This document shows positions 26,329 through 42,579 of a stretch of DNA of 64,000 nt, piece by piece. The stretch comes from a candidate division FCPU426 bacterium (GTDB lineage: Bacteria; Oederibacteriota; JAAXVQ01; JAUVAV01): the NCBI GenBank assembly GCA_040756875.1, contig JBFLYH010000003.1, forward strand, positions 128,001 through 192,000, read 5' to 3'. The notes beneath the pieces were generated by a model. The model did no database searches and was not told the DNA's origin. It saw only the letters and a program-made list of their open reading frames with translations. The position numbers were made by a program, and so were the translations under genes. How positions within the stretch are numbered: the first letter of the stretch is position 1; each line of letters opens with the position of its first letter.

Positions 26329-28055
26329 TGAAGCCTCTCCTTCTCATTGGTTTGGGCCTGGGATTGACGCTGGCCGCGCCGCAGGTTGCGCCTGCCGGCC
26401 AGGACGCGGGCAGCGACTCGGTGCTGGAAATGGGAGCCGGCGCGCGGGCCGTGGCCATGGGCCGCACGGGCGTGGTCGAGGACCAGTCCGCCTATGCCGC
26501 GCAGTGGAACCCCGGCAGCCTGGGCTTCCTGCCCAGGCCGGCGGCGGCCGTGCAGCACGCGGCCCTGTTCGGCGACGCCAGGCACGAAAGCCTGGCCGTG
26601 GTTTATCCCACCCTGGATTACGGCACGTTCTCCCTGATCCTCATGCGCCTGGACCTGGCCGGCGTCGAAGGCCGGGACGCGGACAACCTTCCGACCGGCG
26701 AATTTTCCTTCGTGGAGCAGCAGGCTTCCCTGGGCTACGGCTACCCGGTGTGGGGGCCCTTGTCCCTGGGCGCGGCGCTCAAGGTGCACGACCTGCGCCT
26801 GGCCGGTTACGCGGGCACGGGCGTGGGCGTGGATGCCGGCGCACTGGCCCGCTTCCCCCTGGAAACCGTGTGGCTCGAGGAAGTGGCCGTGGCCGCGGCC
26901 TGCCGCAACCTGGTCGGGCCGTCCCTGCGCCTGCACCAGGAAACCGATCGCCTGCCGGCCGGCTACCGCGCGGGCGCGGCTGCGCGCTTCTCGTTCATCG
27001 ACTCGATCCCCGACTCCCTGTGGGTGCGGGCCGAGGCGGAAAAAGGCGAGCAATCCGACTGGCGCCTGCACGCGGGCGTGGAGTACAGCCTGTACGACAG
27101 CGTGGCCGTGCGCGGCGGCTGGGACCAGGAATATTTTTCCGCCGGCGCAGGCGTGACCTACGCGGGCTTCAGCCTGGACTACGCGGTCAGCTTTCCGGTC
27201 CTGGGCCTGCGCCATTTGGTGACCCTGTCCGTGGCCCTGGGCAAGGACATGGCCGCCCAGCGCGCCGAGCGGACCTCGCAGGAAGAAAAGCGGCGCCAGG
27301 AAATCGTGGCCAACCTGCAGAAGAAGATCATTGCGGACTACCGGCGCCAGGCCCAGGCCAGCGCGGCCAAGCGCGACTTCAGCGAGGCGGCCAAGGGTTG
27401 GGAAAAGATCCTGGATTGGGACCCGAACGACGCCGAGGCCCGCGAGCAGCTGGCCGTGGCCCAGCGCGAAATCATCCGCCAGCAAAACGCGCAGGACATC
27501 CAGGACGCGCAGGAGCAAATGCGCAAGCAGGAGTACATCGACGTGCTGGTTTCCTGCCAGCAGGTGCTGGAGCGCGATCCTGAAAACGAAATCGCCAAGG
27601 CCCTGTACGACCAGGCCGAGAAAAAGGCCTCGCGCCTGGGCAGTTACTCCCTCAACACCAACTTCAAGCAGCTGGAAAACATCCGCGAGGAGTACCAGCT
27701 GGGCTTGAAGGCCTATACCCAGCGCCGGTTCAGCGAAGCCATCACGCACTGGGAAAAGGTCATCGAAACCACGCCCCTGCAGAAGCAGGTGTACCGCTAC
27801 CTGCAGAGCGCCCGGCAGCGCGTGCTCGCGGCCCAGGAGAAAAAGACCGCCCCAACCGCGCCGGCCGAGCCCACCAAGCAGCAGAAGCTGTACAAGGAAG
27901 CGGTCGAGCAGTCGCGCAACGGCAACCTGAAAGCCGCGGTGCGGACGTGGGAAAAACTGGTCAAGGAGAACCCCGAGGACCAGGACGCCAAGCAGAATTT
28001 CGAGGAGACGAGGAAGAACCTGATCGACAGCCAGAAGAAAGGGATCAGCTGGTAG
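26325..28055 (+). CDS. PorV/PorQ-like beta-barrel with C-terminal TPR repeats
   Basis: GAGARAVAMG...A..WNPGSL; helical WEKIL.WDP.D.EA repeats. Confidence 0.75.
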   Translation: MMKPLLLIGLGLGLTLAAPQVAPAGQDAGSDSVLEMGAGARAVAMGRTGVVEDQSAYAAQWNPGSLGFLPRPAAAVQHAALFGDARHESLAVVYPTLDYGTFSLILMRLDLAGVEGRDADNLPTGEFSFVEQQASLGYGYPVWGPLSLGAALKVHDLRLAGYAGTGVGVDAGALARFPLETVWLEEVAVAAACRNLVGPSLRLHQETDRLPAGYRAGAAARFSFIDSIPDSLWVRAEAEKGEQSDWRLHAGVEYSLYDSVAVRGGWDQEYFSAGAGVTYAGFSLDYAVSFPVLGLRHLVTLSVALGKDMAAQRAERTSQEEKRRQEIVANLQKKIIADYRRQAQASAAKRDFSEAAKGWEKILDWDPNDAEAREQLAVAQREIIRQQNAQDIQDAQEQMRKQEYIDVLVSCQQVLERDPENEIAKALYDQAEKKASRLGSYSLNTNFKQLENIREEYQLGLKAYTQRRFSEAITHWEKVIETTPLQKQVYRYLQSARQRVLAAQEKKTAPTAPAEPTKQQKLYKEAVEQSRNGNLKAAVRTWEKLVKENPEDQDAKQNFEETRKNLIDSQKKGISW

Positions 28056-28071
28056 GAGGGTAGCAAAAACC

Positions 28072-28110
28072 AAAGGGGACAGCAGGCATTCAGCCTGCTG
28101 TCCCCTTTTT
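28072..28110. terminator. Bidirectional intrinsic terminator
   Basis: AAAGGGGACAGCAGGC-ATTCA-GCCTGCTGTCCCCTTTTT between convergent genes. Confidence 0.85.
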
Positions 28111-28126
28111 CATTTCCCGGCCCGGT

Positions 28127-28543
28127 TCACAGCTTCGCGGCAAACTCCTCGAAGGCTGCGTCAGGCTGGGGCCCGCGAAATTTGAATATAGCGGCCACCC
28201 GGCCGCCGTGACTGGACACCGTCTCGGCCATTTTTTTCAGAGACGAGCCCACGGCCAGCTTGTAGGTGCAGAAGAGCGCCACCTTTTTCCCCGCCAGGTC
28301 AGGCAGGGTCCGGGCAAACTGCCGGAAGGGTTTGCTGGGCTGCTGCAAAATGATGAACAGCCCGCTGATCCAGCACCCCAGGAAAAGCATGTCCGCCCGC
28401 TTCAAGGCCGCGGGATCAGCGGCCTGCACGTCCACCGCTGAGCATTGATGGCCTTTAGCCTTCAGGATGTTGGCCATGGCTTCCGCGGCTTTTTTGGTGA
28501 TGCCGGTCTTGCTGTCGTACACGATCGAGATGTTCATGCGCAA
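28127..28543 (-). CDS. Flavodoxin-like protein
   Basis: IVYDSKTGITKKAAEAMA, LAGKKVALFCT. Confidence 0.8.
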   Translation of the reverse strand: MRMNISIVYDSKTGITKKAAEAMANILKAKGHQCSAVDVQAADPAALKRADMLFLGCWISGLFIILQQPSKPFRQFARTLPDLAGKKVALFCTYKLAVGSSLKKMAETVSSHGGRVAAIFKFRGPQPDAAFEEFAAKL

Positions 28544-28672
28544 CCCCTCCTCCTGGTTTTAAGTGGGTTGTATTGTACCATAGTCCAGCCGGCTGGAAGG
28601 CAAGACTGCGCTTGGCCGTGCCATTCGGACATCCAACCAACGTCCCCCATTATTCCGGCCCCATGCGCCGGT

Positions 28673-29251
28673 TCAGAATTGCGCCTTGACCCTCCAGCGG
28701 GATTCCTGTTTCAGATGATAATCCCGCGGTGTTTCGATGGCCAGGATCTTCCCGCGGGCATACTCCACCAGCGCCGTAAAGTAGCCCGCCAGGTATTCCT
28801 TGCGCACCTCGCTGAATTCGGGGAAATCGCGCACCACAAAATCGCAGGTCATGAACCGGTTTTCCATTTTATAATTTTCAATCACGGCCACGCCCTGGTC
28901 ATTGTATTGGCGCCAGATTTTCGCCACGCGGTTGAGGACAAACTCCATGCTCGCCATGCGAAAAAATATTCTATACACGCCTTTGATTTCGCAATTGGCG
29001 ATGGCCTTGCCCAATTCCCTGACAGGCTTGGCGGCTTCTGGGAAGAGCATCCGGGCCGCGACATAAAAAATGCTTTTTTCGCCTGAACTGGTGTCATCTT
29101 CAACGCGCGTCACGGCCAGGGCGTTGAGATAGACCTCTTTTTCCTTGGGCAGCAATTTTTCCAAAAAAACCTGCTCGAACTCGGGACCGCGGGCCCGGAT
29201 CAATTCCCGCATGCTGACGAACGGCGCCCCTTTAAAGCTGGTCGCGGACAT
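28673..29251 (-). CDS. Hypothetical protein (possibly DUF2378-like ligand-binding fold)
   Basis: ATG after GGAGGAG; KG..F...R, W.QY.D.G pattern. Confidence 0.55.
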   Translation of the reverse strand: MSATSFKGAPFVSMRELIRARGPEFEQVFLEKLLPKEKEVYLNALAVTRVEDDTSSGEKSIFYVAARMLFPEAAKPVRELGKAIANCEIKGVYRIFFRMASMEFVLNRVAKIWRQYNDQGVAVIENYKMENRFMTCDFVVRDFPEFSEVRKEYLAGYFTALVEYARGKILAIETPRDYHLKQESRWRVKAQF

Positions 29252-29483
29252 GGCAGCTCCTCCCACCGGCAGATGGCGTTATTATACCACCAAACCCGCA
29301 AGGGATATGGATGTCTGCCATAAAGGAATGCGCCTCCGGCAGCAGGGATCACTGCAGGAGAAAAACCAATTGACGGTTGAAAAAGGCGGATATAGAATCG
29401 CATTGAAATTTGATTTTTATCAAGTGACCAGGCCCCTGAAGCGCCATTCACTAGTCTCACTTTAACGAAGGACTCTCATTATC

Positions 29484-30665
29484 ATGCTGCGGCTTATCGG
29501 GTGGTTCATCTACTATGTGCTGTTATGGCCGTGGCGCCTGGCAGGGCTTTTCGTCAAGTACCCCGACCTTTCCCGGCTCTATCGTTTCCCCTTCGGCGTC
29601 TTCGAGGCCCCTAATGTCGTGATCGAGCCCACCGCCGCATGCAATCTCAGGTGCGTGGACTGCTACCGGGGGAGCAACCTCCCGGACAAGCAGCATGCCG
29701 TGATGACCTTGCCGGAGATCAAAAAGTACGTCGACGACGCCCTGGCCCTCCGTAACTTCCATACCCTCTCCATCCTCGGCGGCGAACCGCTCCTCTACGA
29801 CCAGCTCGACGAAGTCATTGCCTATGCCGCGGGCAAGTGCGGCAGCGTGGGCATGTATACCAATGGCGTGCTGCTCGACGAGCAGCGGGCCCGGAAGCTC
29901 AAGGCGGCCGGGCTGGGCAGCTGTTACATCCACGTCGACCGGCATCAAGGCCGCGGGTCCGACGAGGATCAGATCATGCGCCTCCGGCAGCAGTACTGCG
30001 ACATGTTCCGCGCCCTGGGCGGCGTCAACCTCAGCCTCGGCGTCACCTTCCACCGGGAGGACTTGCCCTACCTCGATCAGATGGTCAGCCTGACGCGGCA
30101 AAACGCCGATGTGGTGAAAGTCGTGGGGCTCAGTTTGGTGGGGGCTTCTTATTTGCCGCGGTCCACGCAGCTGTCCACCTTCATCCATTTTCTCAAAGAG
30201 AGCGATCAGGTCGACCTCTTCCAGCGGCAGATGATCAAGCGCATCCAGGAGGCTTTTGGCATTGAATATTCCGCCTATTTGGGCAGCAAGTTCCGCCCGA
30301 AAGTGCCGGGCAAGATCGTGGCGCTCAGCGCCTACCGGCAGGGAAAGCTGCTCGGCTCAATGACAGGCGAGGAATTCAAGGCTGCCACTGACGCCTATTT
30401 CCAGGAACACGGCAAGTACCCCTACGTGCTGAGCCGCGAGGGGTTCAGCGCCATAGGGTCTCATTGCCGCCGGTTTGGCGACAATGTCGACTGGCAGTTA
30501 GTGGCGGTCTCGTTAAGCCCGCTTCTGCTGCCCGAACTGGCGGTGAATGTTTGCCATACGTGCATGGACTGCGTGCTCTATCAGGGCCATTTCGTCCCTA
30601 TGTGCGTGCTGGAGCATGTCAAACAGGACAATCCGGTGGTGCTTAACAGCGTGCGCTATTGGTGA
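29484..30665 (+). CDS. Radical SAM protein
   Basis: CNLRCVDC (CxxxCxxC), GGEPLL, YTNG; C-terminal CHTCMDC. Confidence 0.9.
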   Translation: MLRLIGWFIYYVLLWPWRLAGLFVKYPDLSRLYRFPFGVFEAPNVVIEPTAACNLRCVDCYRGSNLPDKQHAVMTLPEIKKYVDDALALRNFHTLSILGGEPLLYDQLDEVIAYAAGKCGSVGMYTNGVLLDEQRARKLKAAGLGSCYIHVDRHQGRGSDEDQIMRLRQQYCDMFRALGGVNLSLGVTFHREDLPYLDQMVSLTRQNADVVKVVGLSLVGASYLPRSTQLSTFIHFLKESDQVDLFQRQMIKRIQEAFGIEYSAYLGSKFRPKVPGKIVALSAYRQGKLLGSMTGEEFKAATDAYFQEHGKYPYVLSREGFSAIGSHCRRFGDNVDWQLVAVSLSPLLLPELAVNVCHTCMDCVLYQGHFVPMCVLEHVKQDNPVVLNSVRYW

Positions 30666-30674
30666 GGGGTCAGG

Positions 30675-30899
30675 CTATTTATAATAGGCGACATAATAGT
30701 CCAAAACCCTGCGGATCATCTTTTGGTAATGGAATCGTTTTTTCTTCGCATGCGCCTTAAAAAATTCCACACTGGCCTTGCTGAGCGTGATCGTCACCTT
30801 GACCTGGTCGGATTTTTCCGCCAGTTTTTCGGGCGGTGGCAGAAAATCATCCACCACTTTCAGCTTCATGGGCTCATGGGTATATTTTATTTTTTTCAT
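30675..30899 (-). CDS. BrnA/CopG-type antitoxin
   Basis: DFLPPPEKL, KVTITLS...VEFFK..A....YQKMIRRVLD.Y. Confidence 0.8.
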   Translation of the reverse strand: MKKIKYTHEPMKLKVVDDFLPPPEKLAEKSDQVKVTITLSKASVEFFKAHAKKKRFHYQKMIRRVLDYYVAYYK

Positions 30900-30963
30900 G
30901 ATACACCTTCCTTCCGCGCCTCCAGTATCCCGCTCCGATGATCCTGATTTTATGATTGCGGAT
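30874..30963 (-). pseudogene. 3' remnant of a BrnT-type toxin
   Basis: Manual translation IRNHKIRIIGAGYWRRGRKVYHEKNKIYP* overlaps the antitoxin start; in-frame stop shortly upstream and no start codon. Confidence 0.7.
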
Positions 30964-31073
30964 TGATAGTGTTTTATCGATTAGACCGGGTATATTGGAT
31001 TTTCATGCGGGGATTTTGTACTGGAAGGCCTTATAGAATGGTCATTTTGACATTTAAACAACGTCCCGGTTTA

Positions 31074-31325
31074 CTATTTACTTTTTTTTCGCGGCTTTTC
31101 GGACTTCTTTATGAGGGTTGACAGGTTGGTGCCTAAGGCTTTGGCAATAAGGTTGGCGACATGCAGCGATGGAATGCGCTTTTTACGTTCCAACAGCCCG
31201 ATGGTGGTCTTGTGCACCCCGGCTATTTGGGCCAGCTTTTCCCGGGTGATTCCCTTCTCTTCCCTGATTTCCTTGATAAGCGTTAAAAACGAGGATGTAA
31301 GCGGGTCCGTATTGGGCTGATCCAC
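31074..31325 (-). CDS. XRE-family HTH regulator (controller-protein-like)
   Basis: IKEIREEKGITREKLAQIAGVHKTTIGLLERKKRIPSL. Confidence 0.85.
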   Translation of the reverse strand: MDQPNTDPLTSSFLTLIKEIREEKGITREKLAQIAGVHKTTIGLLERKKRIPSLHVANLIAKALGTNLSTLIKKSEKPRKKSK

Positions 31326-31384
31326 AAGCTTTCCTCCGGGATTAGATAAACTTAGTAAATGCTTTTACCTGGCAAATTGCTAGT

Positions 31385-31422
31385 AGACTATTGTCTTTCT
31401 GTATGCTAGGTTGACTATAGTC
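31385..31422. promoter_or_regulatory. Paired palindromic operator (C-box-like)
   Basis: AGACTATTGTCT at 31385 and GACTATAGTC at 31413, between the divergent XRE gene and a small ORF. Confidence 0.6.
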
Positions 31423-31433
31423 TTTCCCGGAGG

Positions 31434-31718
31434 ATGCCCTTGCCTTCCCAGCCCCTTCTCGATATCCATATCAGACCCGCCCCTGCCCCGGCCCCCTACA
31501 GAGCCGCTGTTGCGCAGGTGGTTTTATGTCAGAATATTTTTTTAAAGGAAATAGCGATTTTGAAATATAAGGAAGGGGTGTGGGTCCTGCTGCCAGAGCA
31601 GTTCGTAAATCGCTGCAGGAACCCAAGGGCGAAAAGGGTTTTAGAGGAGGTTGTTAGGGGGTTGGAGGGGGAGTTGAGGGAAGTAATAGTTAGCTATGTA
31701 TTTCAGGACTTCAGTTAA
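31434..31718 (+). CDS. Small hypothetical protein with weak SpoVG-like pattern
   Basis: GGAGG immediately before the ATG (atypically close); A.A.V.L...I.LKEI.I.....GVWV.LP pattern. Confidence 0.45.
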   Translation: MPLPSQPLLDIHIRPAPAPAPYRAAVAQVVLCQNIFLKEIAILKYKEGVWVLLPEQFVNRCRNPRAKRVLEEVVRGLEGELREVIVSYVFQDFS

Positions 31719-31849
31719 TTTTTCCGATGCAGCCTGACAGTTCGACCGGCAAGTGGAGTGATCGTCAGGTGAGTACCATCACTATAACCACCACTTCACA
31801 TTAGACTTAATGGGGAACATTACACAGTTCCGTTCAAACCGTTCACTTT

Positions 31850-31952
31850 ACAAATAAAAAGCAGCCCGTCCCTGCCGCTTTTGTTTTATTCCCAATGTAT
31901 ATGAGAATAAAACCCATGCATGTGTGTGATTTTATTTTAGACGGAGCATGGT
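31850..31952 (-). ncRNA. Candidate DRT3 non-coding RNA with ACACAC template loop (boundaries approximate)
   Basis: Directly after the drt3b stop: CCATGC/GCATGG stem enclosing ATCACACACAT, then a GTTTTATTCTC/GGGAATAAAAC hairpin, then an AAAAGCGGC/GCTGCTTTTT hairpin. Confidence 0.7.
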
Positions 31953-34013
31953 TTAATACACTTCTTGGCTTTTTTTAGCCTCGAGTTCTTTCCCAAAATC
32001 AAAATCACTCCAGTTGGTGAAACTGAAATTACTATTGATAAATATTTCATCTTGCTCATTTTTATCACTAATATCATAGATACTCAATATCTTTCTTTTG
32101 AAATCTTTAGTGAAAAAAGGGCACGAAAGAAGATCAAAAAGTAGTAGTGTCAATTCCGCTTTTTTTATTCTTTTTTCCTGCGGAACTTCAGAGATGGTTT
32201 CACAAATATACTGTTGCAATATACATTTCAACATATTATAACGTGGTTTATTTTCTATATAGAACAACAGAACAGTTATCGAGAAATAATTCAGTTTATA
32301 TTTAACCTGTTTTTCCTCAAGATCAATATTAAAACACTTGCCCAACACTTCTTCTTCTAACCGGTAATCCCTCCCCAGTTCTTTTAATGCCGTAAGAAGA
32401 TAAAGCGTTTCAATTTGATAATACTCCGTATTTTTATTTTTATTGATAATAATAAATATATTGTCATATATTTTTTTAAATATTACGTTTTTATTTTCAT
32501 TGTTAAAATTGCCTTTAATTTTTGCTGCCTTAATCACTTTACTAATTATCATACATAATTTAATCGTCGTATTAACTCTCGGCGATACAGAATATATAAA
32601 AAATACGAATTCCAGTAATTCTAATATTGCTTTAGTCACCTTCTTTTCCTGAGCACGTTTATCTTCAATACCGCAATATATTTTAATAAGTTTCAATATC
32701 CTTCTATCAATACCAGCAAGTGTATAATTCAAAACATCCTTATATTCGATTCCGGCGTTATAAATAATTATTTTAAATTTTGTGATCAACTTATTCGAAC
32801 TGATATATATTGAGTACTTTTTATCACCTTCATCAGTATCATCAGCAGCATCTGTATCAATATTATCTTTTAATTCAGCAGATACTTTGTATTTCATATA
32901 TTTATTCAGCAAGTCGCTAATATTTGATTTCGCAATTGTTATTTTAGTAATAATGGGTTTTTTAAATAACATTGTTTTCGAGTCGTTAATATATAAATTG
33001 TATTCTTTTAATTGACGTCTATATTCTTTTACTATTTCAGTTTTGGTTTTTTCATCATTAAAATAAACAAAATAGTCATCTACATAACGGTATATTTCGT
33101 AGTCATTTTTATAATATATTCTATTTTTCTCTAATCCGCGTAAAACATTCAAATCAATTTTTTGCATTATTATTTCAGCAAATATTCTTGAAAACTCAGG
33201 ACCAATAACAATTCCATTGGTTTCTCCATAGTTCATGTTCTGCATCATAGTATCGAACTTCCCACCAAATGTAGCTTTAGATTCTTCCGTCTTTTCTTTT
33301 ACTATTTCCTTATTCAATATTGCCCAAGAAATGGAGTGGCTATAAATACTATCAAAGCACTTTAAGATATCGAATTTCATCATTTCGTTATATTTTTTTT
33401 CACATTCATGATACTTGTATGATTCGTAAAATTTGTATACATTGCTAAATTCTTTATATGTGAAATATGTTTTCAAACTTTCATATTCTTTATCATATTC
33501 TTCCATCGATTTGTGCTCGTGATCATGAGCTAACAATTCCAAATGTGTTTTATCTTTATAGTAGATATGTTTTGCCGTTTTATATGGTCTCCTGATTGAG
33601 AAAGGGCTAATATTACAATAATATAAAATCATTTCCTTATATTTATCATAGTGTTCAATTACTGCCAGTTGATTCTTTGGATGGATAATTGTTAATTGTC
33701 TAAAATCATTTTCATTATGGGATATCCTATAATTAAATGGTATCGTTGTGTAGTCCTTCGCACATTTCAGAGATATACTTTGATTTACAATAGGCATGTT
33801 TTTTGGAAAACCAAATAATAATTTTATAACTGACCCAAAAGACGGTTCGCTATTTCCCCATTTTAGTTTATTTTCCGCAAGGCATATTTTGTTACGATTA
33901 ATAAATTCTCGAAAACGCCGGTTTGAAAATGATATCGGAATTTCATATGGTAAAACATCGGAAAGAATCACTCTTTCTTTTTTCATACTTATCTTTTTTT
34001 TCTTGTGCTTCAT
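31953..34013 (-). CDS. drt3b: Antiviral reverse transcriptase Drt3b (UG8-type)
   Basis: ERVILSDVLPYEIPISFSN, KFDILKCFDSIYSHSISWA, GETNGIVIGPEFSRIFAEII, catalytic YRYVDD; long helical C-terminus; AT-rich. Confidence 0.88.
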   Translation of the reverse strand: MKHKKKKISMKKERVILSDVLPYEIPISFSNRRFREFINRNKICLAENKLKWGNSEPSFGSVIKLLFGFPKNMPIVNQSISLKCAKDYTTIPFNYRISHNENDFRQLTIIHPKNQLAVIEHYDKYKEMILYYCNISPFSIRRPYKTAKHIYYKDKTHLELLAHDHEHKSMEEYDKEYESLKTYFTYKEFSNVYKFYESYKYHECEKKYNEMMKFDILKCFDSIYSHSISWAILNKEIVKEKTEESKATFGGKFDTMMQNMNYGETNGIVIGPEFSRIFAEIIMQKIDLNVLRGLEKNRIYYKNDYEIYRYVDDYFVYFNDEKTKTEIVKEYRRQLKEYNLYINDSKTMLFKKPIITKITIAKSNISDLLNKYMKYKVSAELKDNIDTDAADDTDEGDKKYSIYISSNKLITKFKIIIYNAGIEYKDVLNYTLAGIDRRILKLIKIYCGIEDKRAQEKKVTKAILELLEFVFFIYSVSPRVNTTIKLCMIISKVIKAAKIKGNFNNENKNVIFKKIYDNIFIIINKNKNTEYYQIETLYLLTALKELGRDYRLEEEVLGKCFNIDLEEKQVKYKLNYFSITVLLFYIENKPRYNMLKCILQQYICETISEVPQEKRIKKAELTLLLFDLLSCPFFTKDFKRKILSIYDISDKNEQDEIFINSNFSFTNWSDFDFGKELEAKKSQEVY

Positions 34014-34024
34014 TCCATTACCCT

Positions 34025-35344
34025 TTACCACATCTCAATTATTTTTTTTAATTCATATGATTCGAAAGGCGAATATCTCTTTGTCTCAAAACCTTCGCTA
34101 AAACTATACTTCAATAACCTAGCTTTAAGTTGGGAAGTATGTATTTCATTAATAATTTTAGTTCGTAAATAGTTATCCAAGTGTTGTAAATCTATCTTGT
34201 CCGTCAAATGACAATTAGAATAGTAAATACCCACTAATATATTTTGTTTATTGCCCTTTAACCGAGTATTTCCAGTTAAATATCTCACCCTTTTAACGAG
34301 TATTTTCCTCGCTTCTTTTTCATTAATTCTGCTTAAATTATTATAGTGATCGAATGACACATTTATTTTCTTGATATATTTCATATATTTTTGCTTAGTT
34401 AATTTTGTTTTGACCTGACCATCTTTAAACTCAATTCTATATCCAAGGTAATCAAATTCGCAAGATTGCTTTTTATCTAACAGGTTAAAGATAGTTGTTT
34501 TATCAATATTTATTTTTAATTCATATTTTTGTTCGATTATATCTTTTACTTGTGCTATGTAATCCGTTTTATCGCCCATTGAACTTGGAGTGAAAATAAT
34601 AACAATATCGTCAACATATCTTGAATAATATGCAAGATTAGGTAGCTTGTTGATTTCTTTATCAATTTGACTCATATATATTTCTGCAAAATAAGCGCTA
34701 ACTCCAATTCCCCTCGGAATGCCTTTTTCACTCCCGGATAATTTTTTATACTCACTAAATATTTGTCGTACAATTTTTTTCGAAGTAGGTGTTAATAGAT
34801 CATTCTCATTTATTTGATTTATCAATCTATCTCGCGGGATACTTTCATAAAAATTGCTTATATCCGTTCTTAATACCTGTTTCGGGAACTTGTCTCCAAT
34901 GATTTTCAATAATTGATCTATTATTGTATTTCTGCTTGATTGTTTAACACCAAATAGTTTCGAAACATTCATTTGCAATTGTTTCATAATAAAATACTGC
35001 TCCGGCTTATCTCTAATAACGTAAATAAATTTACCGTCTTTATTTTTATTTGCTATTATTTCTACTTTAAAATCAGTCATCAATGCTTTTTGACTGACCT
35101 CCTCCAATTTCGCAGTTAGTTCTTTTTCCTTTTGTTCTTTTAGTTTTATTCTTTCACAATATATTTTATTACTTTCATCTTTAGTTAATTCTTTATTTTC
35201 TCTCAGCCGTATCGAATACTGTTTAATTTGTTCGGAGATTTTCTTAAGATCCGGAAAATATCTTCCCTCGAGATATATTCCTTTCCTATTTTCCAGATCC
35301 AATATTCTTCTAAAATTTTCTGCTGAAAACGATTGGCTTAGCAC
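34025..35344 (-). CDS. drt3a: Antiviral reverse transcriptase Drt3a (UG3-type)
   Basis: MLSQSFSAENFR, RTDISNFYESI, GIPRGIGVSAYFAEIYM, catalytic YSRYVDD, FDYLGY; directly upstream of drt3b. Confidence 0.88.
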   Translation of the reverse strand: MLSQSFSAENFRRILDLENRKGIYLEGRYFPDLKKISEQIKQYSIRLRENKELTKDESNKIYCERIKLKEQKEKELTAKLEEVSQKALMTDFKVEIIANKNKDGKFIYVIRDKPEQYFIMKQLQMNVSKLFGVKQSSRNTIIDQLLKIIGDKFPKQVLRTDISNFYESIPRDRLINQINENDLLTPTSKKIVRQIFSEYKKLSGSEKGIPRGIGVSAYFAEIYMSQIDKEINKLPNLAYYSRYVDDIVIIFTPSSMGDKTDYIAQVKDIIEQKYELKINIDKTTIFNLLDKKQSCEFDYLGYRIEFKDGQVKTKLTKQKYMKYIKKINVSFDHYNNLSRINEKEARKILVKRVRYLTGNTRLKGNKQNILVGIYYSNCHLTDKIDLQHLDNYLRTKIINEIHTSQLKARLLKYSFSEGFETKRYSPFESYELKKIIEMW

Positions 35345-35447
35345 GGGTTAAAAGCCACCCCCTCTATATGACAATACCGAGAATATCTAGATTCAAAATA
35401 TCGAAAGAAGTATAATGACCTCAGTTTCTATTTACTTCGTTGCCTTT

Positions 35448-36284
35448 TCATCCTAGATATGCTAAAAGTGCCCCAGTAAAATGTAATGCTAATTGAGCAT
35501 CTTTAGGTTCCATAATTACACTATTTTGCTGTTCATGTCTTGCCAAGTGTAGATACCCAGAAAGTTCAACAATTATAGAATTAATTTTATCTGCTTTCTG
35601 ATGATCAGACACAATTTTATTTATAGCTTCTAAACCCCGCCCCATATCATCGCTTCCCGATGTATCTTTTATTAATGCTTCAAATGCTTTTCGACAATTC
35701 ATTAATGTTTCATCCCACAAGCCTCGCCGATAACAATTTATAGCATCATTAAATCGATCCAATGCCCGAGCTACATTTGGTTTTCGTTGAATACTACGCG
35801 CAGGTAATTCTATCAATTCAACTTCTGACCACGCAAACATTCTAAGGTGCTTAATCCATTCCGATTGAGGAATATGATAGTCTATCCTTGTATCTTCGGT
35901 TATTTGTTTATAAACCGGTTGTCCAAGTACAATCGGTTTAGGTTCCGTCTCAACTTGACATACTAGTGCTTGGGCATAAATTGTAAAATCAACATCGCCT
36001 CCCGCACGCTGCTCTTCAATATATTTCAAGACATTAGGCGTAAACTGAATCTCAATTGATCCTTGGGTGACTGTTCCTGGTTGTATTATTGGGGATAATA
36101 TATTCATTATTTTACCTTCAGCAATTGATGTTCCAGTTTTGCCGATAACCTTTACCCACACATCTAGAATGCATATAGCACACGTAGATTGGTTTCTTAT
36201 TTCACATTTTAATTCAAGAAGTCTAAGCGGAAGGCCACTTGAATAGCATTCCTTAATGGTTGTTGATAGCCTAACTTGTTCCAT
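35448..36284 (-). CDS. Hypothetical protein: beta-rich N-terminus plus HEPN/Abi-C-like helical C-terminus
   Basis: AT-rich; NCRKAFEALIK...YLHLARHE...DAQLAL pattern; co-oriented upstream of drt3a. Confidence 0.6.
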   Translation of the reverse strand: MEQVRLSTTIKECYSSGLPLRLLELKCEIRNQSTCAICILDVWVKVIGKTGTSIAEGKIMNILSPIIQPGTVTQGSIEIQFTPNVLKYIEEQRAGGDVDFTIYAQALVCQVETEPKPIVLGQPVYKQITEDTRIDYHIPQSEWIKHLRMFAWSEVELIELPARSIQRKPNVARALDRFNDAINCYRRGLWDETLMNCRKAFEALIKDTSGSDDMGRGLEAINKIVSDHQKADKINSIIVELSGYLHLARHEQQNSVIMEPKDAQLALHFTGALLAYLG

Positions 36285-36420
36285 CAGTCACCTCATTGTA
36301 ATTGGGAACGTTGTTTGAATGATTAGGGCCGGAGTTAACTTATTAACTTAATCGCCGCGCTAGCTCCGCCCTTTTATCGATTATAACGGCTAGTATTGCC
36401 AGTTTGCCGCACAGTTTGCT

Positions 36421-37587
36421 TTACTTAATAATTGCCAACCTTGCTTTTCCAAGTTCTTTACCATCCATCATCAAATACGCCAGATAAATCCCATGTGGTA
36501 TATCTGAGCAATCCCAAATCACCGCTTGCCCTCTACCAGCCGATAGTGACTTTTCAATACTACTAACCGGTTCACCAACTACATTAAATATCAGGATTTG
36601 AATCTTTACCGCTCTATCCAAATTCATGATAAACCGCACTTGGTCTCTGGCGGGATTAGGCGAAACCATAAATAACTTCCCCGTCATATCAATATCTGCA
36701 AGTGTTCTTCCGGAGGTGGGAGTACGAGTCGCGGTATTGGAAATCGTAGTACTAGTAGGGGATACGTAAGGAGTCACAGTAAAAGAAGGCGAAATTGTCG
36801 GTGAAATGGTTATTGAAACAGAAGGAGTCAGAGTTAATGTTGGTGTTGAAGTGAGTGTGCCCGAATAGGTAAAGGTAGGCGTAATAGTTGGAGACGGAGT
36901 AAAAGTAGGAGAAATAGTATAAGTCGGAGTAATAGTCGGTGTTGGTGTAATGGTGGGGGTATTGGTTTTGGTGGCAGTGATCACGTCCAGGGTTATATCA
37001 TCCACGCGGATGAAACTAGCATCCGAAATGCCGTCGTCATAGGCGCGAAAAACCAGTTGGACGTTCTGGCCGCTATATACGCTTAAATTGAGATATTTGT
37101 CGATCCGTGTCCAGCCAGGTGTGGGTGTGGGCTGGACTAAAAACCCGTTGCCCTGCTCCCTGAAAAGCTGGATACCACCAAATGTGGCATCGGCATACAT
37201 CTGGGTCCCGAAAATATAGGTCACAAACCACTGATAGTAAGCGGTCAAGGTTGCGCCTAGTGCATCCCGAGGTATATCAATGTACTGAATAATACAAGAA
37301 TCAGAATAGCCGCCTAGACTGTTACCAGGCGCCACTACTGCAGTATTAGTAACGCCTGTGTGGTGGATCACGCCTTCATGCTGAGTGGGATAGAAAGTGG
37401 ACGGGCTAGCGGCAGTTACCCAGTTGGGAATACCACCCGCACCCGTAGTTTCAAAGTTGCCGTTTATAATAAGCTCTGTCGCCCAAGTTGTATTTACTCC
37501 GCCGATCAATACCAGTAAGAGAATGGATATAATTGAAGTTACTAACCAAGAAAGTAAAATGGGCAATTTACTTCTTTTAGGAGGCAA
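36421..37587 (-). CDS. Secreted protein: carbohydrate-binding-like domain, Thr/Pro linker, T9SS-like CTD
   Basis: Signal/TM segment; ELIINGNFETT; TPTITPT linker; SPNPARDQ...FNVVGE...GIYLA...ARLAIIK. Confidence 0.75.
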   Translation of the reverse strand: MPPKRSKLPILLSWLVTSIISILLLVLIGGVNTTWATELIINGNFETTGAGGIPNWVTAASPSTFYPTQHEGVIHHTGVTNTAVVAPGNSLGGYSDSCIIQYIDIPRDALGATLTAYYQWFVTYIFGTQMYADATFGGIQLFREQGNGFLVQPTPTPGWTRIDKYLNLSVYSGQNVQLVFRAYDDGISDASFIRVDDITLDVITATKTNTPTITPTPTITPTYTISPTFTPSPTITPTFTYSGTLTSTPTLTLTPSVSITISPTISPSFTVTPYVSPTSTTISNTATRTPTSGRTLADIDMTGKLFMVSPNPARDQVRFIMNLDRAVKIQILIFNVVGEPVSSIEKSLSAGRGQAVIWDCSDIPHGIYLAYLMMDGKELGKARLAIIK

Positions 37588-37690
37588 GCAGGGGTCCTCC
37601 TGGGGTGATTTTGGCTTATTATCTACCGATTAGACTCGAATTCCACCCCAAAATAACATAAATTGCATATTTTTTTAAACAGTCAAAATC

Positions 37691-37880
37691 TCACCACGAA
37701 GGCACGAAGGTTGACACGAAGGACACGAAGGAAGCCGAGGGTAAAGTCCTAAATCTAAACCTGTAACTTCTCACCACGAAGGTACGAAGACTGACACGAA
37801 GAACTCGAAGGAGTTCAGGGTTAAAGCTTTTAAACTCCAGACTAGTCTTACGCTTTCCTTCGTGGCTTCGTGGTGAAGCC
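37691..37880. repeat. ACGAAG/CTTCGT palindromic element, copy 2 (composite)
   Basis: Two TCACCACGAAGG.ACGAAG arms plus CTTCGTGGCTTCGTGGTGA. Confidence 0.85.
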
Positions 37881-37899
37881 TTGTTTGGATAATGGGGAC

Positions 37900-37970
37900 G
37901 TTGTTTAAATGTCAAAATGACGACTAACCCAGATTGCTTCGGGCCTTTCGGCCCTCGCAATGATGCGCAA
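37900..37970 (+). repeat. ~70-bp direct repeat, left flank of the Fic gene
   Basis: GTTGTTTA..GTCAAAATGAC...CAGATTGCTTCGGGCCTT..GGCCCTCGCAATGA; recurs at 39064-39135. Confidence 0.8.
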
Positions 37971-37973
37971 ACG

Positions 37974-38981
37974 TCAGCTTAAATAATACTTTGTCGCCCG
38001 GGCTTTCCCTGCCATCCCGACGATTCCGGCTTTGATCAAAGGCGCGATCAGTTGATTGACCCTGGCCCGGTTGATTTTCATGGCTGCGCCGATGTCTTTG
38101 GAACTGCAGCCCGCGTTTTGCTTGATAAAATGAATAAGCTCTTCCTGCTTGCCTGAAAGCGCGATCTCCTTTTTAGGCGAAACCGCCAACTGGTAGATCC
38201 TGCCCAGGGCGCTCTCCAGGGTTTCCAAAACGCCCTGGGCGAGGTAATCCAGCCAGTAGGTCAAATCGTAATCCAGCTCCCGGGCCTGGCGGATTTTCTG
38301 GTAGTATTTTTCCCGGTCTTGGGCGAAATATTCATCCAGCGCGGCAATATGCGACGGATCGTACTGCCCGTGGTAGAGAATCCACAGCGAAACCGCCCTG
38401 GCCAGCCTGCCGTTGCCGTCGGCAAAGGGGTGGATGGTCACGAACTGGTGGTGGAACACGGCGCTGGCGATGACAGGGTTCATACCTTTTGCGCGCGCGA
38501 GCCATGCCAATAAATCGCGCATGAGTTTCGGAACCGCGGGCGCAGCGGGGGGGGTGTATGCCGTGCGGCCCTTGCCATCGAGCACGTAGTTCTGCACTTC
38601 GCGGTAGCGGCCGCATTTCTCGGGGTTGACCAATCCCCGGGTGATCATGCGGTGCAGGCGCAGCAGGTCCTTTTCAGCCACGGGTTTGTCCGCGTGGTCC
38701 AGCACCCATTGCAGGGCCTGGATATAATTGGCGACTTCCCTTTTCTGCCTTTCGTCCGCCCTGACCTCTTTTCGCCCGCGCAAGGCGGCCACCTGTTCGA
38801 GCGAAAGCCGGTTCCCCTCGATCCAGGTCGAAGAATGGACGTTGCGGTTGAATGCTTCGGTTTGGAGCATCAGCTTGGCCGGCAGACGAACGCGGCTCTT
38901 GCGGATATCCGCCTGGAGCGCCGCGATCTTTTCGATGCAGCCGAGGAAATATTCGGTAATGCGGTAATTGGGTCGGTACAT
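37974..38981 (-). CDS. Fic-domain protein with C-terminal winged HTH
   Basis: Canonical HPFADGNGRLAR Fic motif; STWIEGN inhibitory-helix-like motif. Confidence 0.92.
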   Translation of the reverse strand: MYRPNYRITEYFLGCIEKIAALQADIRKSRVRLPAKLMLQTEAFNRNVHSSTWIEGNRLSLEQVAALRGRKEVRADERQKREVANYIQALQWVLDHADKPVAEKDLLRLHRMITRGLVNPEKCGRYREVQNYVLDGKGRTAYTPPAAPAVPKLMRDLLAWLARAKGMNPVIASAVFHHQFVTIHPFADGNGRLARAVSLWILYHGQYDPSHIAALDEYFAQDREKYYQKIRQARELDYDLTYWLDYLAQGVLETLESALGRIYQLAVSPKKEIALSGKQEELIHFIKQNAGCSSKDIGAAMKINRARVNQLIAPLIKAGIVGMAGKARATKYYLS

Positions 38982-39063
38982 GTCCGGCCTCCAGACTGGA
39001 TTATGACATATCGTATAGGTATTGTCTAGGGTATTGTCTAGGGCTGCTGGCGGGCCAAGGGAT

Positions 39064-39135
39064 GTTGTTTAGAGGTCAAAATGACAGGTAGCACAGATTG
39101 CTTCGGGCCTTCAGGCCCTCGCAATGACGTGCGAA
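39064..39135 (+). repeat. ~70-bp direct repeat, right flank of the Fic gene
   Basis: Matches 37900-37970. Confidence 0.8.
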
Positions 39136-39275
39136 AAGCAACTCCCCCCCACCTGTCCCTTGAAAGTAGATAGGAGAAAGTTGACCGCATTTGAGGCTCT
39201 ATCCACTATCTCCTATCGCCTCTCAAATGCTCTGCTGCTCGTAGTGCGAGCAGCTAGAGGGGGATTAAGGAGGAG

Positions 39276-39587
39276 TTATGCCGCTAATCTCGGATGCCTT
39301 TTCCCTTCCACTTTCAAGCGCAGCCCGATGCATTTGATCATTTTCATGATGTTCTCAATGCTGGGATTGCCTGTTTTCGAGGTCATGCGGTACAGGCTGG
39401 CGCGGTGAACCTTGCATTCCTTCGCCAAGCGGCTTATGCTTCCCTGCGCTTCCGCGACATCCCGCAGGGCCAGCAGAAACACTTTGGGATCGCCGTCTTC
39501 CAGGGCGGCGTTGAGGTACCCCACAGCCTCCTTGGGGTCCAGTAATTCTTTCATCAGGTCTTGTTTGTATTTGCGGTAGGGTTTCAT
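39276..39587 (-). CDS. Addiction-module antidote (HigA-like HTH antitoxin)
   Basis: YLNAALEDGDPKVFLLALRDVAEAQG, RASLYRM...GNPS. Confidence 0.88.
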   Translation of the reverse strand: MKPYRKYKQDLMKELLDPKEAVGYLNAALEDGDPKVFLLALRDVAEAQGSISRLAKECKVHRASLYRMTSKTGNPSIENIMKMIKCIGLRLKVEGKRHPRLAA

Positions 39588-39910
39588 AGCATTCGCTCCT
39601 TGAAGTCCGCCCAGTATTGCTTCGCTTTATCGAGGTCCTTTTTCTGTGTTCCTTTGTCTCCACCGCAAAGTAAAAGGACAATCCGGTCTTTCCAATAACC
39701 AAAATAAGTTCTATAACCAGGGCCAAAATGAAGCCGCAGTTCCCAAACTTCCCCTGCGATGTGCCTGGCGTCGCTTTGAGCGCCCAAGCGCAACCTGTTC
39801 AACCCGGCCTCAACTCGCTTCTTTGTCACCCATTCCAAGTTGTACAGCCATTCACGAAACGGTGATTTTCCCGCGGGTGTTCGGTATATCCATAGTTCCC
39901 TAGTCTCTAC
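39584..39910 (-). CDS. RelE/ParE-family addiction-module toxin (start codon uncertain; GTA at the expected position)
   Basis: GKSPFREWL, GEVWELRLHFGPGYRTYFG, VLLLCGGDKGTQKKD. Confidence 0.85.
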   Translation of the reverse strand, partial: VETRELWIYRTPAGKSPFREWLYNLEWVTKKRVEAGLNRLRLGAQSDARHIAGEVWELRLHFGPGYRTYFGYWKDRIVLLLCGGDKGTQKKDLDKAKQYWADFKERML

Positions 39911-39927
39911 CCTGCCGCCTCCCCGAG

Positions 39928-39954
39928 TGTCGCATATAAGCGACATCCTGTCAA
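39928..39954 (-). promoter_or_regulatory. TA promoter -35 box with palindromic operator
   Basis: TTGACA (39954-39949) followed by the palindrome TGTCGC-ATATAA-GCGACA (39928-39945). Confidence 0.65.
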
Positions 39955-40031
39955 ACCACAAAAGATGGTTTATAGGAAGTTAGACCGGCAGAACCTCTTT
40001 TTCATGCGCAGAAAATGCAAGGGAACCCAAA

Positions 40032-40310
40032 CTCACCACGAAGGCACGAAGGTTGACACGAAGGACTCGAAGGAGTTCAGGGTTAAAATCATTAACCCTA
40101 GCCCTGCTTTTCTTCGTGCTCTTCGTGGCTTCGTGGTGAGATTGAAAGCCTTTACCACGAAGGCACGAAGGCTGACACAAAGGACACGAAGGAGTTCGGG
40201 GTTTAAGTCTTAAATCCAATCCACTTTTTTACCTTTTATTATTCATTCGTGCTCTTCGTGATCCATCTTTAAATGCGGACCCCGAAGGCGCGAAGATTGA
40301 CGCGAAGCCA
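40032..40310. repeat. ACGAAG/CTTCGT palindromic element, copy 3 (composite)
   Basis: TCACCACGAAGGCACGAAGGTTGACACGAAG...CTTCGTGCTCTTCGTGGCTTCGTGGTGA plus a second unit. Confidence 0.85.
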
Positions 40311-40512
40311 GCCCCCCCTGTCCTGGCGGCTGCGGTCAACCGGCGCCTGGCATTGGCAACAAATTTTACCCTCCGGAAGACCTTTCGCTTTCGAGACTGA
40401 ATGTGAAATGATATAGTAAATTTAATGATTGGCCCGGGTTCAGGGCCGGCGGGCAGGACGGAAACCGGCCAAGACGAATTGAGCTTCCATTCTTCGGAGA
40501 GGCGGGCGAGAG

Positions 40513-42579
40513 ATGCGACAAGGGGCAAGGTTGGCTGTGCTGGTGTTTTTAGGAAGCCTGGTGTCCGGCATGGCCTGGGCGGCAACGACGGATTATTTCG
40601 TCATCACGGTGAAAACCGACAATGCCGGGAGCTCGGCGTCGAACGCCTTCACCATTCCCACCACGGGCGCAGGATACAGCTACGACGTGGACCTGCAAGG
40701 GCTGAATGCCTGGGAGTACATTGGCATCGCGGGCAACACGACCTGTGTTTACGCCGCGCCGGGAACGTACACCCTCCGCATCCGGGGGACCTTTCCGAGG
40801 ATCTACTTCAACAACACGGGTGACATCTTGAAGATCCTCTCCATCGACCAATGGGGCACGGGCGCCTGGGCCTCCATGGGCCACGCGTTTCATGGCTGCG
40901 CCAACCTGACGGGCCAGGCCGCGGATGCGCCCAATCTGGCCGCGGTCACGGACCTGAGCTACATGTTTGCCGGCGGATCGCTGTATTTCGGCACGACCGT
41001 GAACGCCAACACCTTCGACCAAGCCATCGGAAACTGGAACACGGCCAATGTCACCACCATGGAGGCCATGTTCAAGAACGCCAAGTTCAACCAGCCCATC
41101 GGAACCTGGAACACCGCGCAGGTCGCTAACATGTCGAGCATGTTCATGAACGCCCTGGCTTTCAACCAGGACCTTAATGCCTGGGATACGGGCAGCGTGA
41201 CGAACATGAACAACATGTTCAAGTACGCCGTCGCCTTCAACGGGCCGATCGGGAGCTGGGACACGTCCAGCGTGACGACGCTATTCGGCATGTTTTACCA
41301 GGCGGGCGCGTTCAACCAGAACATCAACGCCTGGGACATGTCCCACGTGACCACCACGCTCCAAATGTTCTATCAAGCCGCGGCGTTCAACCAACCCCTC
41401 GGAAGCTGGCAAACCGGGAACATGACCTCGATGGCGAGCATGTTTAACGGCGCGCGTGCGTTCAACCAGGACATCAGCGGCTGGAACACGGGCCAGGTGA
41501 CCACCATGTCCGGCATGTTCTCCTATGCGGATGCCTTCAACCAGGACATCAGCGCATGGGACGTGTCCCATGTGGCGGACATGAGCGACATGTTTCTCAG
41601 CGCCGACACCTTCAATCAACCGCTGGCCGGGTGGAACACGAGCGCGGTGACCGACATGGGCAATATGTTCAGGAGCGCCGTGGCGTTCAATCAGCCCATC
41701 GGCGCCTGGAACATTGGCGCGGTGACCGACATGAGCTATATGTTCATGGGCGCCACGGCGTTCAACCAGCCGCTCAGCACGTGGGACACCGGCGCGGTGA
41801 CCGACATGAACGGTATGTTTTTCAGTGCCACGGCTTTCAACCAGTCCCTCAGCGCCTGGGACACGTCGGCCGTGACGACCATGGCGTACATGTTCCAGGC
41901 CGCGTCTTCCTTCAACCAGGACCTCAGCGCCTGGAACACGGGGAGCGTGAACACCATGACCGCCATGTTTGCCAACGCCGCGGCCTTCGACCAGGACCTC
42001 GGCGGCTGGGATATCACGTCGCTGCTTACGGCCGGCTCCATGTTCGCCGGCCATGCCCTTTCGCTGGCTAATTACGAAGCGCTGTTGAACGGCTGGGGCG
42101 TGCAGAACGTCCACAGCAATGTGGTCTTTGACGGCGGGAACAGCCAATATACCAGCTTCGAGGCCACCACTCGCCGCAATGCCCTGATCGTGAACAAGAA
42201 CTGGACCATCACGGACGGCGGCGTCTATGCCACGCCTACGCCGACGCCCACCATTACCCCGACGATCGCCGCCACGCCGGCCCCCACGCCGCGCAACCCC
42301 CTGGAGGACGTGGACCTGACCGGCAGGCTGTTCCTGGTGTATCCCAATCCCGGCCGCGACCAAATAAAGTTTCTGGTCAATCCCGAGCACCCAGCGGCCG
42401 TGAAGGTCGTGCTGTTCAACCTGGGTGGTGAGCGGGTGTCCGAGGTGGAGGATTCCGTGCCCGCCGGAAAGAGCGCCGTGGCCTGGGATTGCCGCCAGGT
42501 TGCGTCCGGCTTCTACCTGGCGCGGCTCTTCCTGGATGGCCGGGAAATCGGCACGGCCAAGGTGGCGGTGGCGAGATAA
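40513..42579 (+). CDS. BspA-like/DUF285 repeat surface protein with Thr/Pro linker and T9SS-like CTD
   Basis: Many 25-aa FNQ.I..W.T..VT.M..MF repeats; YPNPGRD...KVAVAR. Confidence 0.9.
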   Translation: MRQGARLAVLVFLGSLVSGMAWAATTDYFVITVKTDNAGSSASNAFTIPTTGAGYSYDVDLQGLNAWEYIGIAGNTTCVYAAPGTYTLRIRGTFPRIYFNNTGDILKILSIDQWGTGAWASMGHAFHGCANLTGQAADAPNLAAVTDLSYMFAGGSLYFGTTVNANTFDQAIGNWNTANVTTMEAMFKNAKFNQPIGTWNTAQVANMSSMFMNALAFNQDLNAWDTGSVTNMNNMFKYAVAFNGPIGSWDTSSVTTLFGMFYQAGAFNQNINAWDMSHVTTTLQMFYQAAAFNQPLGSWQTGNMTSMASMFNGARAFNQDISGWNTGQVTTMSGMFSYADAFNQDISAWDVSHVADMSDMFLSADTFNQPLAGWNTSAVTDMGNMFRSAVAFNQPIGAWNIGAVTDMSYMFMGATAFNQPLSTWDTGAVTDMNGMFFSATAFNQSLSAWDTSAVTTMAYMFQAASSFNQDLSAWNTGSVNTMTAMFANAAAFDQDLGGWDITSLLTAGSMFAGHALSLANYEALLNGWGVQNVHSNVVFDGGNSQYTSFEATTRRNALIVNKNWTITDGGVYATPTPTPTITPTIAATPAPTPRNPLEDVDLTGRLFLVYPNPGRDQIKFLVNPEHPAAVKVVLFNLGGERVSEVEDSVPAGKSAVAWDCRQVASGFYLARLFLDGREIGTAKVAVAR

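Follow-up and report, generated by a model that had tools for sequence, protein, structure and literature searches.

How does a bacterium with a GC-rich genome come to carry two adjacent reverse transcriptase (RT) genes in a sharply AT-rich block of DNA, and do these genes, with what follows them, make up a complete anti-phage system? The question is raised by a 64,000-nucleotide (nt) stretch from a candidate division FCPU426 bacterium (GenBank assembly GCA_040756875.1, contig JBFLYH010000003.1, positions 128,001 to 192,000 of the forward strand). This whole stretch is referred to as the window, and coordinates are counted from its first letter. An earlier sequence-only reading had taken the two genes for drt3a and drt3b of a DRT type 3 (DRT3) phage defence locus. 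Our analysis comes to the same view: that this is a genuine, structurally intact, horizontally acquired DRT3 system working like that of Escherichia coli has, in our estimate, a probability of roughly 0.85, and its genes, catalytic residues and RNA, all of them intact, suggest that it could be active in this host. DRT3 has already been characterised and the NCBI annotation models would name both genes automatically; a pseudoknot found across the RNA family and a compact class of these RNAs are the only points that go past routine annotation.

Two reverse transcriptases in an AT-rich block

The two minus-strand open reading frames (ORFs) lie next to each other at 34025..35344 (439 amino acids (aa), GTG start) and 31953..34031 (692 aa when counted from a GTG), and the ORF list and translations show them as they had been described, co-oriented and intact (439 and ~686 aa), with a YVDD motif in each. 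The AT-rich block in a GC-rich genome is equally plain: GC content is 0.26-0.30 over ~31750-35500 and 0.55-0.72 in the flanks. Against the baseline of the host genome (3.22 Mb in 7 contigs, 60.2% GC; 6395 windows of 3.5 kb with a mean of 0.602 and a standard deviation of 0.058), the DRT3 core, at 28.8% GC, is more than 5 standard deviations under the mean and is the second-lowest region of the genome. In the direction of transcription drt3a (35344..34025) comes first and drt3b (34013..31953) second. The relatives used for comparison here and below were 80 of 531 confirmed DRT3 stretches from a genome collection and 2 from the host's phylum; a Drt3a match lies upstream of drt3b in 80 of 83 loci, and of the remaining three no fewer than two (L006, L014) are cut off by a contig end.

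The product of drt3a (34025..35344, minus strand) is a class 2 (UG3) RT. It matches NCBIfam NF041747 with 373 bits (cut-off 200) over positions 2-412 of a 412-position model and the PADLOC Drt3a profile with E 4.5e-112, the next-best family being RT_UG17 at 104 bits, and its top match in the PDB is 9z6y_A, 'Drt3a' (E 5.5e-23). Its YVDD motif (residues 243-246) stands in the context RYVDDIVIIF, Pfam RVT_1 scores above cut-off, and the protein agrees at 50 of the 51 columns with >=95% conservation among 74 other Drt3a sequences, the exception being a conservative L-to-F change.

The second gene, drt3b (31953..34013, minus strand), encodes a class 1 (UG8) protein-primed RT of 686 aa that begins with the ATG at 34013. 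An alternative in-frame GTG at 34031 would give 692 aa, with the ATG as residue 7 of that form; the start is taken as 34013 because the protein database holds the 686-aa form and the homolog consensus starts there (residue numbers below are those of the 692-aa form). Drt3b matches NCBIfam NF041748 with 742 bits (cut-off 350) over the entire model (1-647 of 647) and the PADLOC Drt3b profile with E 2.1e-208, followed by Drt6 at 156 bits. Its top PDB matches are 26cz_A (E 2e-88) and 9z6y_H, 'Drt3b' (E 2.1e-64); the YVDD motif lies in RYVDDYFVYF and Pfam RVT_1 is again above cut-off. (In-frame stops that appeared in the drt3b genes of several relatives were an artefact of a first-ATG rule.)

The available text of Wang et al. 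2026 (PMC13174585) describes the E. coli Drt3b as a maker of poly(dC-dA) that is primed on its penultimate residue, Y666, and uses no nucleic-acid template. Its gates are E22 and R241, R71 stacks against the base coming in, and at the active site are D182/I183/F187 and Y276-V-D278. A hand mapping on the 26cz_A alignment, in which a tag offset of 108 fits all landmarks, places E30, R111, D221/I222/F226, R282, Y316-V-D-D319 and the C-terminal Y692 of the window's Drt3b opposite E22, R71, D182/I183/F187, R241, Y276-D278 and the priming tyrosine. None of these residues varies among 19 homologs with 53-65% identity (alignment A1), and all 82 Drt3b proteins compared have a tyrosine at the C-terminus, in last (66) or penultimate (16) position. 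By this alignment, the window's Drt3b has every residue reported to be essential for the protein-templated synthesis of poly(dC-dA). It agrees with 81 other homologs at 105 of the 109 columns that are at least 95% conserved; two of the departures, M289 and Y323, are conservative and the other two are considered below.

Since both RTs exceed the equivalog cut-offs of their families and the operon order and the RNA agree, the UG3 and UG8 pair is that of DRT3, as the sequence-only reading had held. In the scans with PADLOC and with Drt3a and Drt3b hidden Markov models these two families come out best, and retron, Abi and other UG families far lower. The earlier claim that the context is not that of an intron, retron, diversity-generating retroelement (DGR) or cas1 locus also holds: nowhere in the window does a group II intron or retron RNA reach the Rfam gathering score, a search of 27000-41000 gave no DGR-like template/variable repeat pair, and there is no Cas1 or retron effector among the neighbour ORFs scanned (Pfam 7 + 8, PADLOC 8).

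The RNA component

In Rfam 15 nothing relevant was found at E<=1 in 28000-40000 and nothing reached the gathering score in the whole window, so the noncoding RNA (ncRNA), which the sequence-only reading had only named as lying downstream, was modelled from relatives. A covariance model (R1), built from 14 of them with the window left out, has one match in the 64 kb of the window, at 31958..31856 on the minus strand (104.6 bits, E 1.3e-24), directly after the drt3b stop; the next match has 8.2 bits (E 3.9) and there are no others. The ncRNA, ~95 nt at 31857..31951 (minus strand), its 5' end placed provisionally 2 nt past the stop codon, folds with a minimum free energy of -32.2 kcal/mol (z -4.27), a value that none of 200 shuffles equals.

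From 5' to 3' it consists of an arm CCAUGC, a box UCCGUCUAAA, an A/U linker, C-ACACAC-A, an arm GCAUGG, a 12-bp hairpin, a terminal hairpin and a U run. The two arms (31946..31951 and 31914..31919, minus strand), which both fold and alignment pair with each other, form helix P1, and the loop that P1 closes holds the template, 5'-ACACAC-3', read directly at 31922..31927 within CACACACA (31921..31928). The 12-bp stem-loop 3' of the template (31883..31913) is seen in the fold, with the loop UAUACAU at 31895..31901. The terminal hairpin and U run (31857..31882, with an 8-nt loop AGGGACGG at 31866..31873) make a terminator-like site, and the hairpin probably doubles as an intrinsic terminator.

That this is a family trait is seen first in the template. 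An ACACAC lies no more than 260 nt past the drt3b stop in 83 of 83 loci, mostly at +24 to +56; control windows of 260 nt from the same loci contain one in 103 of 4519 cases (2.3%). It is invariant in a MAFFT alignment of 15 near relatives (A2) and present in every row of an alignment of 71 sequences to the covariance model (A4). The RNAalifold consensus on A2 has three elements, P1 closing the template loop, a middle hairpin and a terminal one; 17 of its 24 pairs are compensatory (changed on both sides) and 95.5% of cells are paired, against 36-53% with the partners slid, with none of 500 shuffles reaching the observed values. Run over 675 kb of loci, the model has 71 matches at E<=0.01 in 71 of the 83 sources, all of them directly after drt3b on the coding strand, and the window RNA is among the top 8 by score. 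(It has no match for the RNA of the other 12 sources, nor for that of the E. coli plasmid locus described at the end of this text.) In A4, a model-fitted alignment and as such one that favours structure, 93.1% of cells are paired (36-54% when slid) and 24 of 24 pairs change on both sides. The figures for the separate helices are 91.9% of cells for P1 (6/6 pairs), 89.6% and 90.3% for helices 2 and 3, which make up the stem-loop 3' of the template (10/10), and 98.6% for helix 5, the terminal hairpin (7/7). As far as sequence and covariation go, the DRT3 RNA component with its template at 31927..31922 is confirmed, the role of the template being the one that Wang et al. assign to it.

A pseudoknot and a compact class of RNA

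Six nucleotides of the template loop, CCGUCU (31939..31944, minus strand), are matched by GGACGG (31866..31871, minus strand) in the loop of the terminal hairpin. Neither the MAFFT alignment nor the covariance model contained this pairing, and its support is covariation: the six pairs form in 91.8% of A4 cells but in 21-61% once slid, each of the six has changes on both sides (69 cells), and none of 500 shuffles, which give 0.238, attains the observed covariation score of 0.484. A2 agrees on the same six pairs. A seventh (A2 columns 28/123) was rejected, being unpaired in 14 of 15 sequences. Thus the RNAs of the DRT3 family very probably share a six-pair pseudoknot. The terminal loop leaves two nucleotides before the six-pair helix and none after it, and the geometry may be that of a classical H-type pseudoknot. 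The word 'pseudoknot' is absent from the main text of Wang et al. (PMC13174585), and the papers listed by a literature search for DRT3 and pseudoknot, which did not extend to Deng et al. 2026 or to supplements, concern DRT2 or DRT10. The E. coli plasmid locus (L093) seems to follow the pattern in other letters, with UCAGGC at 4520-4525 complementary to GCCUGA at 4611-4616, as judged by eye alone.

In the solved DRT3 complex (9Z6Z), according to the available text of 10.64898/2026.06.29.735271, the template is framed by two stem-loops, of which the 5' one is contacted by Y419 of Drt3a. A hairpin of 4-9 bp just 5' of ACACAC is found in 45 of the 71 family RNAs. The remaining 26 make up a compact class, with an unstructured, A/U-rich linker of 8-13 nt in its place, which takes in the window RNA and its four closest relatives in the tree. 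The 5' template-flanking stem-loop, missing as it is in 26 of 71 RNAs, is therefore a variable rather than a defining feature of the family. The difference has no evident counterpart in the protein: in 64 systems no column of the Drt3a alignment differs at >=70% in each class.

On the 5' side of the template in compact RNAs, the first structure that one meets is the pseudoknot helix itself, 8-13 nt before ACACAC. One might propose, tentatively and with more doubt than conviction, that the pseudoknot ties the ends of the RNA together round the template and acts in these RNAs as its 5' boundary or anchor, a role not yet described. Were that so, it would be a telomerase-like solution. Telomerase RNA also has a short template in a closed loop and a pseudoknot that uses the strand 5' of the template, and its template boundary elements are described, in the sources available, as either a stem-loop or a pseudoknot; the likeness is no more than an analogy, with no homology shown between the RNAs. 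The covariance model, the pseudoknot and the two classes can in any case be reused for annotating DRT3 RNAs, which are unmatched in Rfam 15.

How the locus would work

The poly(GT/AC) mechanism that the sequence-only reading had put forward agrees with the available text of Wang et al. (PMC13174585), in which Drt3a copies the looped 5'-ACACAC-3' RNA template into poly(dT-dG), RecBCD limits DRT3 DNA in E. coli, and the phage inhibitor Gam triggers the system. Reviews (PMC13314766, PMC13213688) report a 2.6 Å structure of a 6:6:6 (Drt3a:Drt3b:ncRNA) DRT3 complex from Deng et al. 2026 (Science). The phages T5 and lambda-vir are sensitive to E. coli DRT3. What is said here of DNA products, complex, defence phenotype and expression in this host is inferred from homology with E. 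coli. Drt3a of the window would bind the ~95-nt RNA and copy ACACAC repeatedly into poly(dT-dG), and Drt3b would prime on its own Y692 and, needing no nucleic-acid template, make poly(dC-dA), with the alternation of A and C enforced by E30 and R282. The two strands would anneal to a (GT/AC)n duplex, whose build-up during infection would abort phage growth. What makes DRT3 mechanistically remarkable is that amino-acid side chains are the template of one of its polymerases.

The window's locus shares with the E. coli system (PMC13174585; PDB 26cz, 9z6y, 9z6z) its gene order and orientation, both RT families and both YVDD motifs, the Glu/Arg gates, stacking Arg and C-terminal priming Tyr of Drt3b, and an RNA with a looped ACACAC directly after drt3b. 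The differences are that the closest plasmid-borne E. coli Drt3b is only ~41% identical to the window's, that the priming Tyr is penultimate there and the last residue here, and that the window has a compact RNA, with no hairpin just 5' of the template, in a host with no detectable RecC. An RNA of this kind, in a host that lacks a canonical RecBCD, offers a test of how general the RecBCD/Gam trigger and the model of two flanking stem-loops are.

Two other kinds of system bear comparison. DRT10 (a UG17 RT with an ncRNA and SLATT), as the available texts of PMC12632851 and 10.64898/2026.06.29.735271 present it, carries out a telomerase-like synthesis of tandem repeats; RT_UG17 is the second-best family for Drt3a, and both enzymes copy a short, looped, structure-bounded template repeatedly. 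In contrast to DRT10, there is no SLATT effector here, the partner is a second, template-independent RT and the repeat is a dinucleotide. The class 1 UG/Abi enzymes AbiK, DRT4 and DRT6, in the descriptions available, share with Drt3b a thumb-less RT joined to alpha-helical repeats and protein priming on Tyr, and AbiK, Drt4 and Drt6 are the next-best matches of Drt3b, far under their family cut-offs; unlike DRT3, they act alone and make random or other products.

Arrival in the host genome

Horizontal acquisition, also proposed from the sequence at the outset, is supported by the GC gap, by an empty site in a sister species, by patchy occurrence in the phylum and by a tree that crosses phyla. 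Of 99 genomes searched in the phylum, 3, this one included, have a Drt3b above cut-off; it was not found in a 100%-complete genome of the same genus, nor in 9 other genomes of the family. In that same-genus genome (G001), window 31040-31071 and 37587-37674 have homologs that adjoin each other, so that 31072-37586 is extra here. The extra segment holds an XRE-type helix-turn-helix gene, a 94-aa ORF, the RNA, drt3b, drt3a, an orphan gene (P0003, described below) and a gene for a secreted protein that belongs to a large host family; the contig of G001 is homologous again only from ~47719.

In a tree of 82 Drt3b sequences (from which the pseudogene of L068 was left out, and in which L005 is on a very long branch) the window copy pairs with one from a Bacillota metagenome-assembled genome (MAG; SH-aLRT 93) inside a 5-row clade drawn from four phyla (SH-aLRT 99), and the three copies from the host's phylum need 3 changes. 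The nearest relative of all is 65% identical. Among plasmids, 11 carry a Drt3b-like gene at E<=1e-30, with >=80% of the query covered in 5 cases, and only 2 phage records have a match, partial and at 27%. A GC content below that of the flanks is common in the DRT3 family (0.36 against 0.61-0.64 at L076), with the window copy an extreme case. The locus documents a recent cross-phylum transfer into a small, GC-rich and mostly uncultured phylum in which the genomes searched rarely carry DRT3.

A 27-nt junction motif, CATTTTGACATTTAAACAACGTCCC, lies at 31041..31067 (plus strand) and again as a perfect inverted copy at 37895..37921 (minus strand), with 6827 nt between the arms. In a form of ~25-27 nt it has 15 copies in the genome, whose flanks diverge right after it and several of which stand beside regions of <42% GC. 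Further copies are at 39059-39085 and 28622-28647 of the window, and elsewhere in this genome (G000) the motif is listed with C1:109106-110821, C1:1033667-1034731, C1:1273627-1274125, C2:196346-198392 and C2:398598-398705. In G001 it marks the empty site and abuts the homolog of window 37587..37674. It may signal a hotspot of recombination or insertion, or belong to a small repeat element. The genome has ~15 regions of <42% GC in all; the lowest (C2:812001-827000, ~15 kb, to 25% over 3.5 kb) is presumably another foreign island.

Is the locus silent, foreign to the assembly or of another family?

Several observations weigh against a DRT3 locus that works here as in E. coli. Two of the departures of Drt3b from highly conserved columns are non-conservative: R41 stands where 77 of 81 homologs have Y, and S670, in the C-terminal tail that carries the priming tyrosine, where 78 of 81 have W. 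In the window RNA the 10-nt linker AAAUAAAAUC that joins the pseudoknot box to the template has no predicted pairs, which leaves this RNA lacking the 5' template-flanking stem-loop of the solved complex. The intergenic region upstream of drt3a (35345..35447, minus strand) has a Shine-Dalgarno-like GAGGGGG at 35358..35364, and a sigma-70-type scan of it found no minus-strand promoter site. From the 31-point gap in GC, a strong mismatch in codon usage with the host is to be expected. Finally, E. coli DRT3 is under RecBCD/Gam control, and in this host genome no RecC was detected and RecB and AddA are below their cut-offs, the sole candidate of RecB/AddA type being a 974-aa UvrD-like helicase with a C-terminal PD-(D/E)XK nuclease (G000 C1:656345-659270). 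The control node of DRT3 may therefore differ here from that of E. coli.

The explanation that survives next best is a true DRT3 locus by descent that is now a silent or inactive recent passenger, poorly expressed or crippled by substitutions. The Y41R and W670S changes, the mismatch of 28.8% with 60.2% GC, the lack of a promoter-like site upstream of drt3a and a host without the canonical RecBCD partner would all fit, and pseudogenised relatives are known (frameshifted in L068; in CP083496.1 with drt3b split into two coding sequences). We nevertheless regard it as unlikely, since both ORFs are full length with no internal stops, every experimentally essential residue is kept, and the RNA retains its template, all helices and the pseudoknot with a score in the top 8 of 71; a GC content under that of the flanks, being normal in this family, is not by itself a sign of decay.

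A chimera of assembly or binning, in which the AT-rich block would come from another organism, is suggested by the very sharp compositional break and by nearest relatives from other phyla. The block is, however, part of a 431,916-base contig and has host-like sequence to its left and right, it is bracketed by the 27-nt motif that has 15 genome copies and marks the empty site of the sister species, contamination of the genome is given as 0.09%, and ~15 other low-GC regions are what islands would lead one to expect; such an origin is most improbable. Still less credible is an assignment of the RTs to other UG/Abi families (DRT10/UG17 with AbiK/DRT4/DRT6), a retron, a group II intron or a DGR, for the weaker RT_UG17, Drt6, Drt4, AbiK and group II intron RT matches, such as any RT would give, score 3-5 times lower and under their own cut-offs (Drt4 107/450, group II 78/300, Drt2 58/390), there is no Rfam intron or retron RNA and no template/variable repeat pair in the stretches searched, and the RNA is of DRT3 type.

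Neighbouring genes and other DRT3 loci

Directly upstream of drt3a on the same strand, P0003 (35448-36284, minus strand) is a 278-aa orphan of 37% GC, with a sub-threshold HEPN match C-terminally, weak Abi-like leads in the ESM Atlas and similarity to uncharacterised clusters of ~300-aa proteins. It was considered as a third DRT3 component and rejected, having a homolog in 0 of 82 related loci (3-kb flanks) and matching 0 PADLOC families; it may be a separate gene of abortive-infection type. At 37974-38981 (minus strand), ~2.6 kb from DRT3, is a second candidate defence gene, encoding a Fic-domain protein with a C-terminal winged helix (PADLOC SoFic E 3.2e-58, 195.8 bits). With this SoFic-like gene, a Gp49-like toxin gene and a BrnA-like antitoxin nearby, the surroundings of DRT3 look like a small defence and toxin-antitoxin island. 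A radical SAM neighbour was rejected as a viperin (46.6 bits, partial match). An ACGAAGG-rich direct repeat of 69 nt is present in four copies (37693-37761, 37773-37841, 40035-40103 and 40154-40222), and an element of ~75 nt at 39160-39235 has 3 copies in this genome and many in the related G001 and G002; neither has an Rfam match.

Some of the related loci deserve mention in their own right. Nearly identical Drt3b sequences occur in Henriciella and Sneathiella genomes (L052/L053; branch lengths 0.0035 and 0.0067), and an Agrobacterium Drt3b is sister to a copy from a Bacteroidia MAG (L043/L060); both pairs point to recent transfers between distant hosts, or to errors of MAG binning. L005, from another genome of the host's phylum (G061), has a Drt3b of 618 bits, a Drt3a only 28% identical to the window's, an ACACAC at +104 and no covariance-model match, and may be a divergent DRT3 subtype with a different RNA. 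In L068 (JADIYW010000034.1, a Bacteroidota MAG) drt3b is frameshifted with many in-frame stops, and the ncRNA (5078-5180) scores 87.4 bits with a deletion in its terminal hairpin; DRT3 appears to be decaying there. The E. coli plasmid locus L093 (CP083496.1, 2465-4508), where drt3b is annotated as two hypothetical proteins, matches in two pieces by tblastn and lies beside an integrase gene, is probably a disrupted DRT3 on an IncY plasmid.

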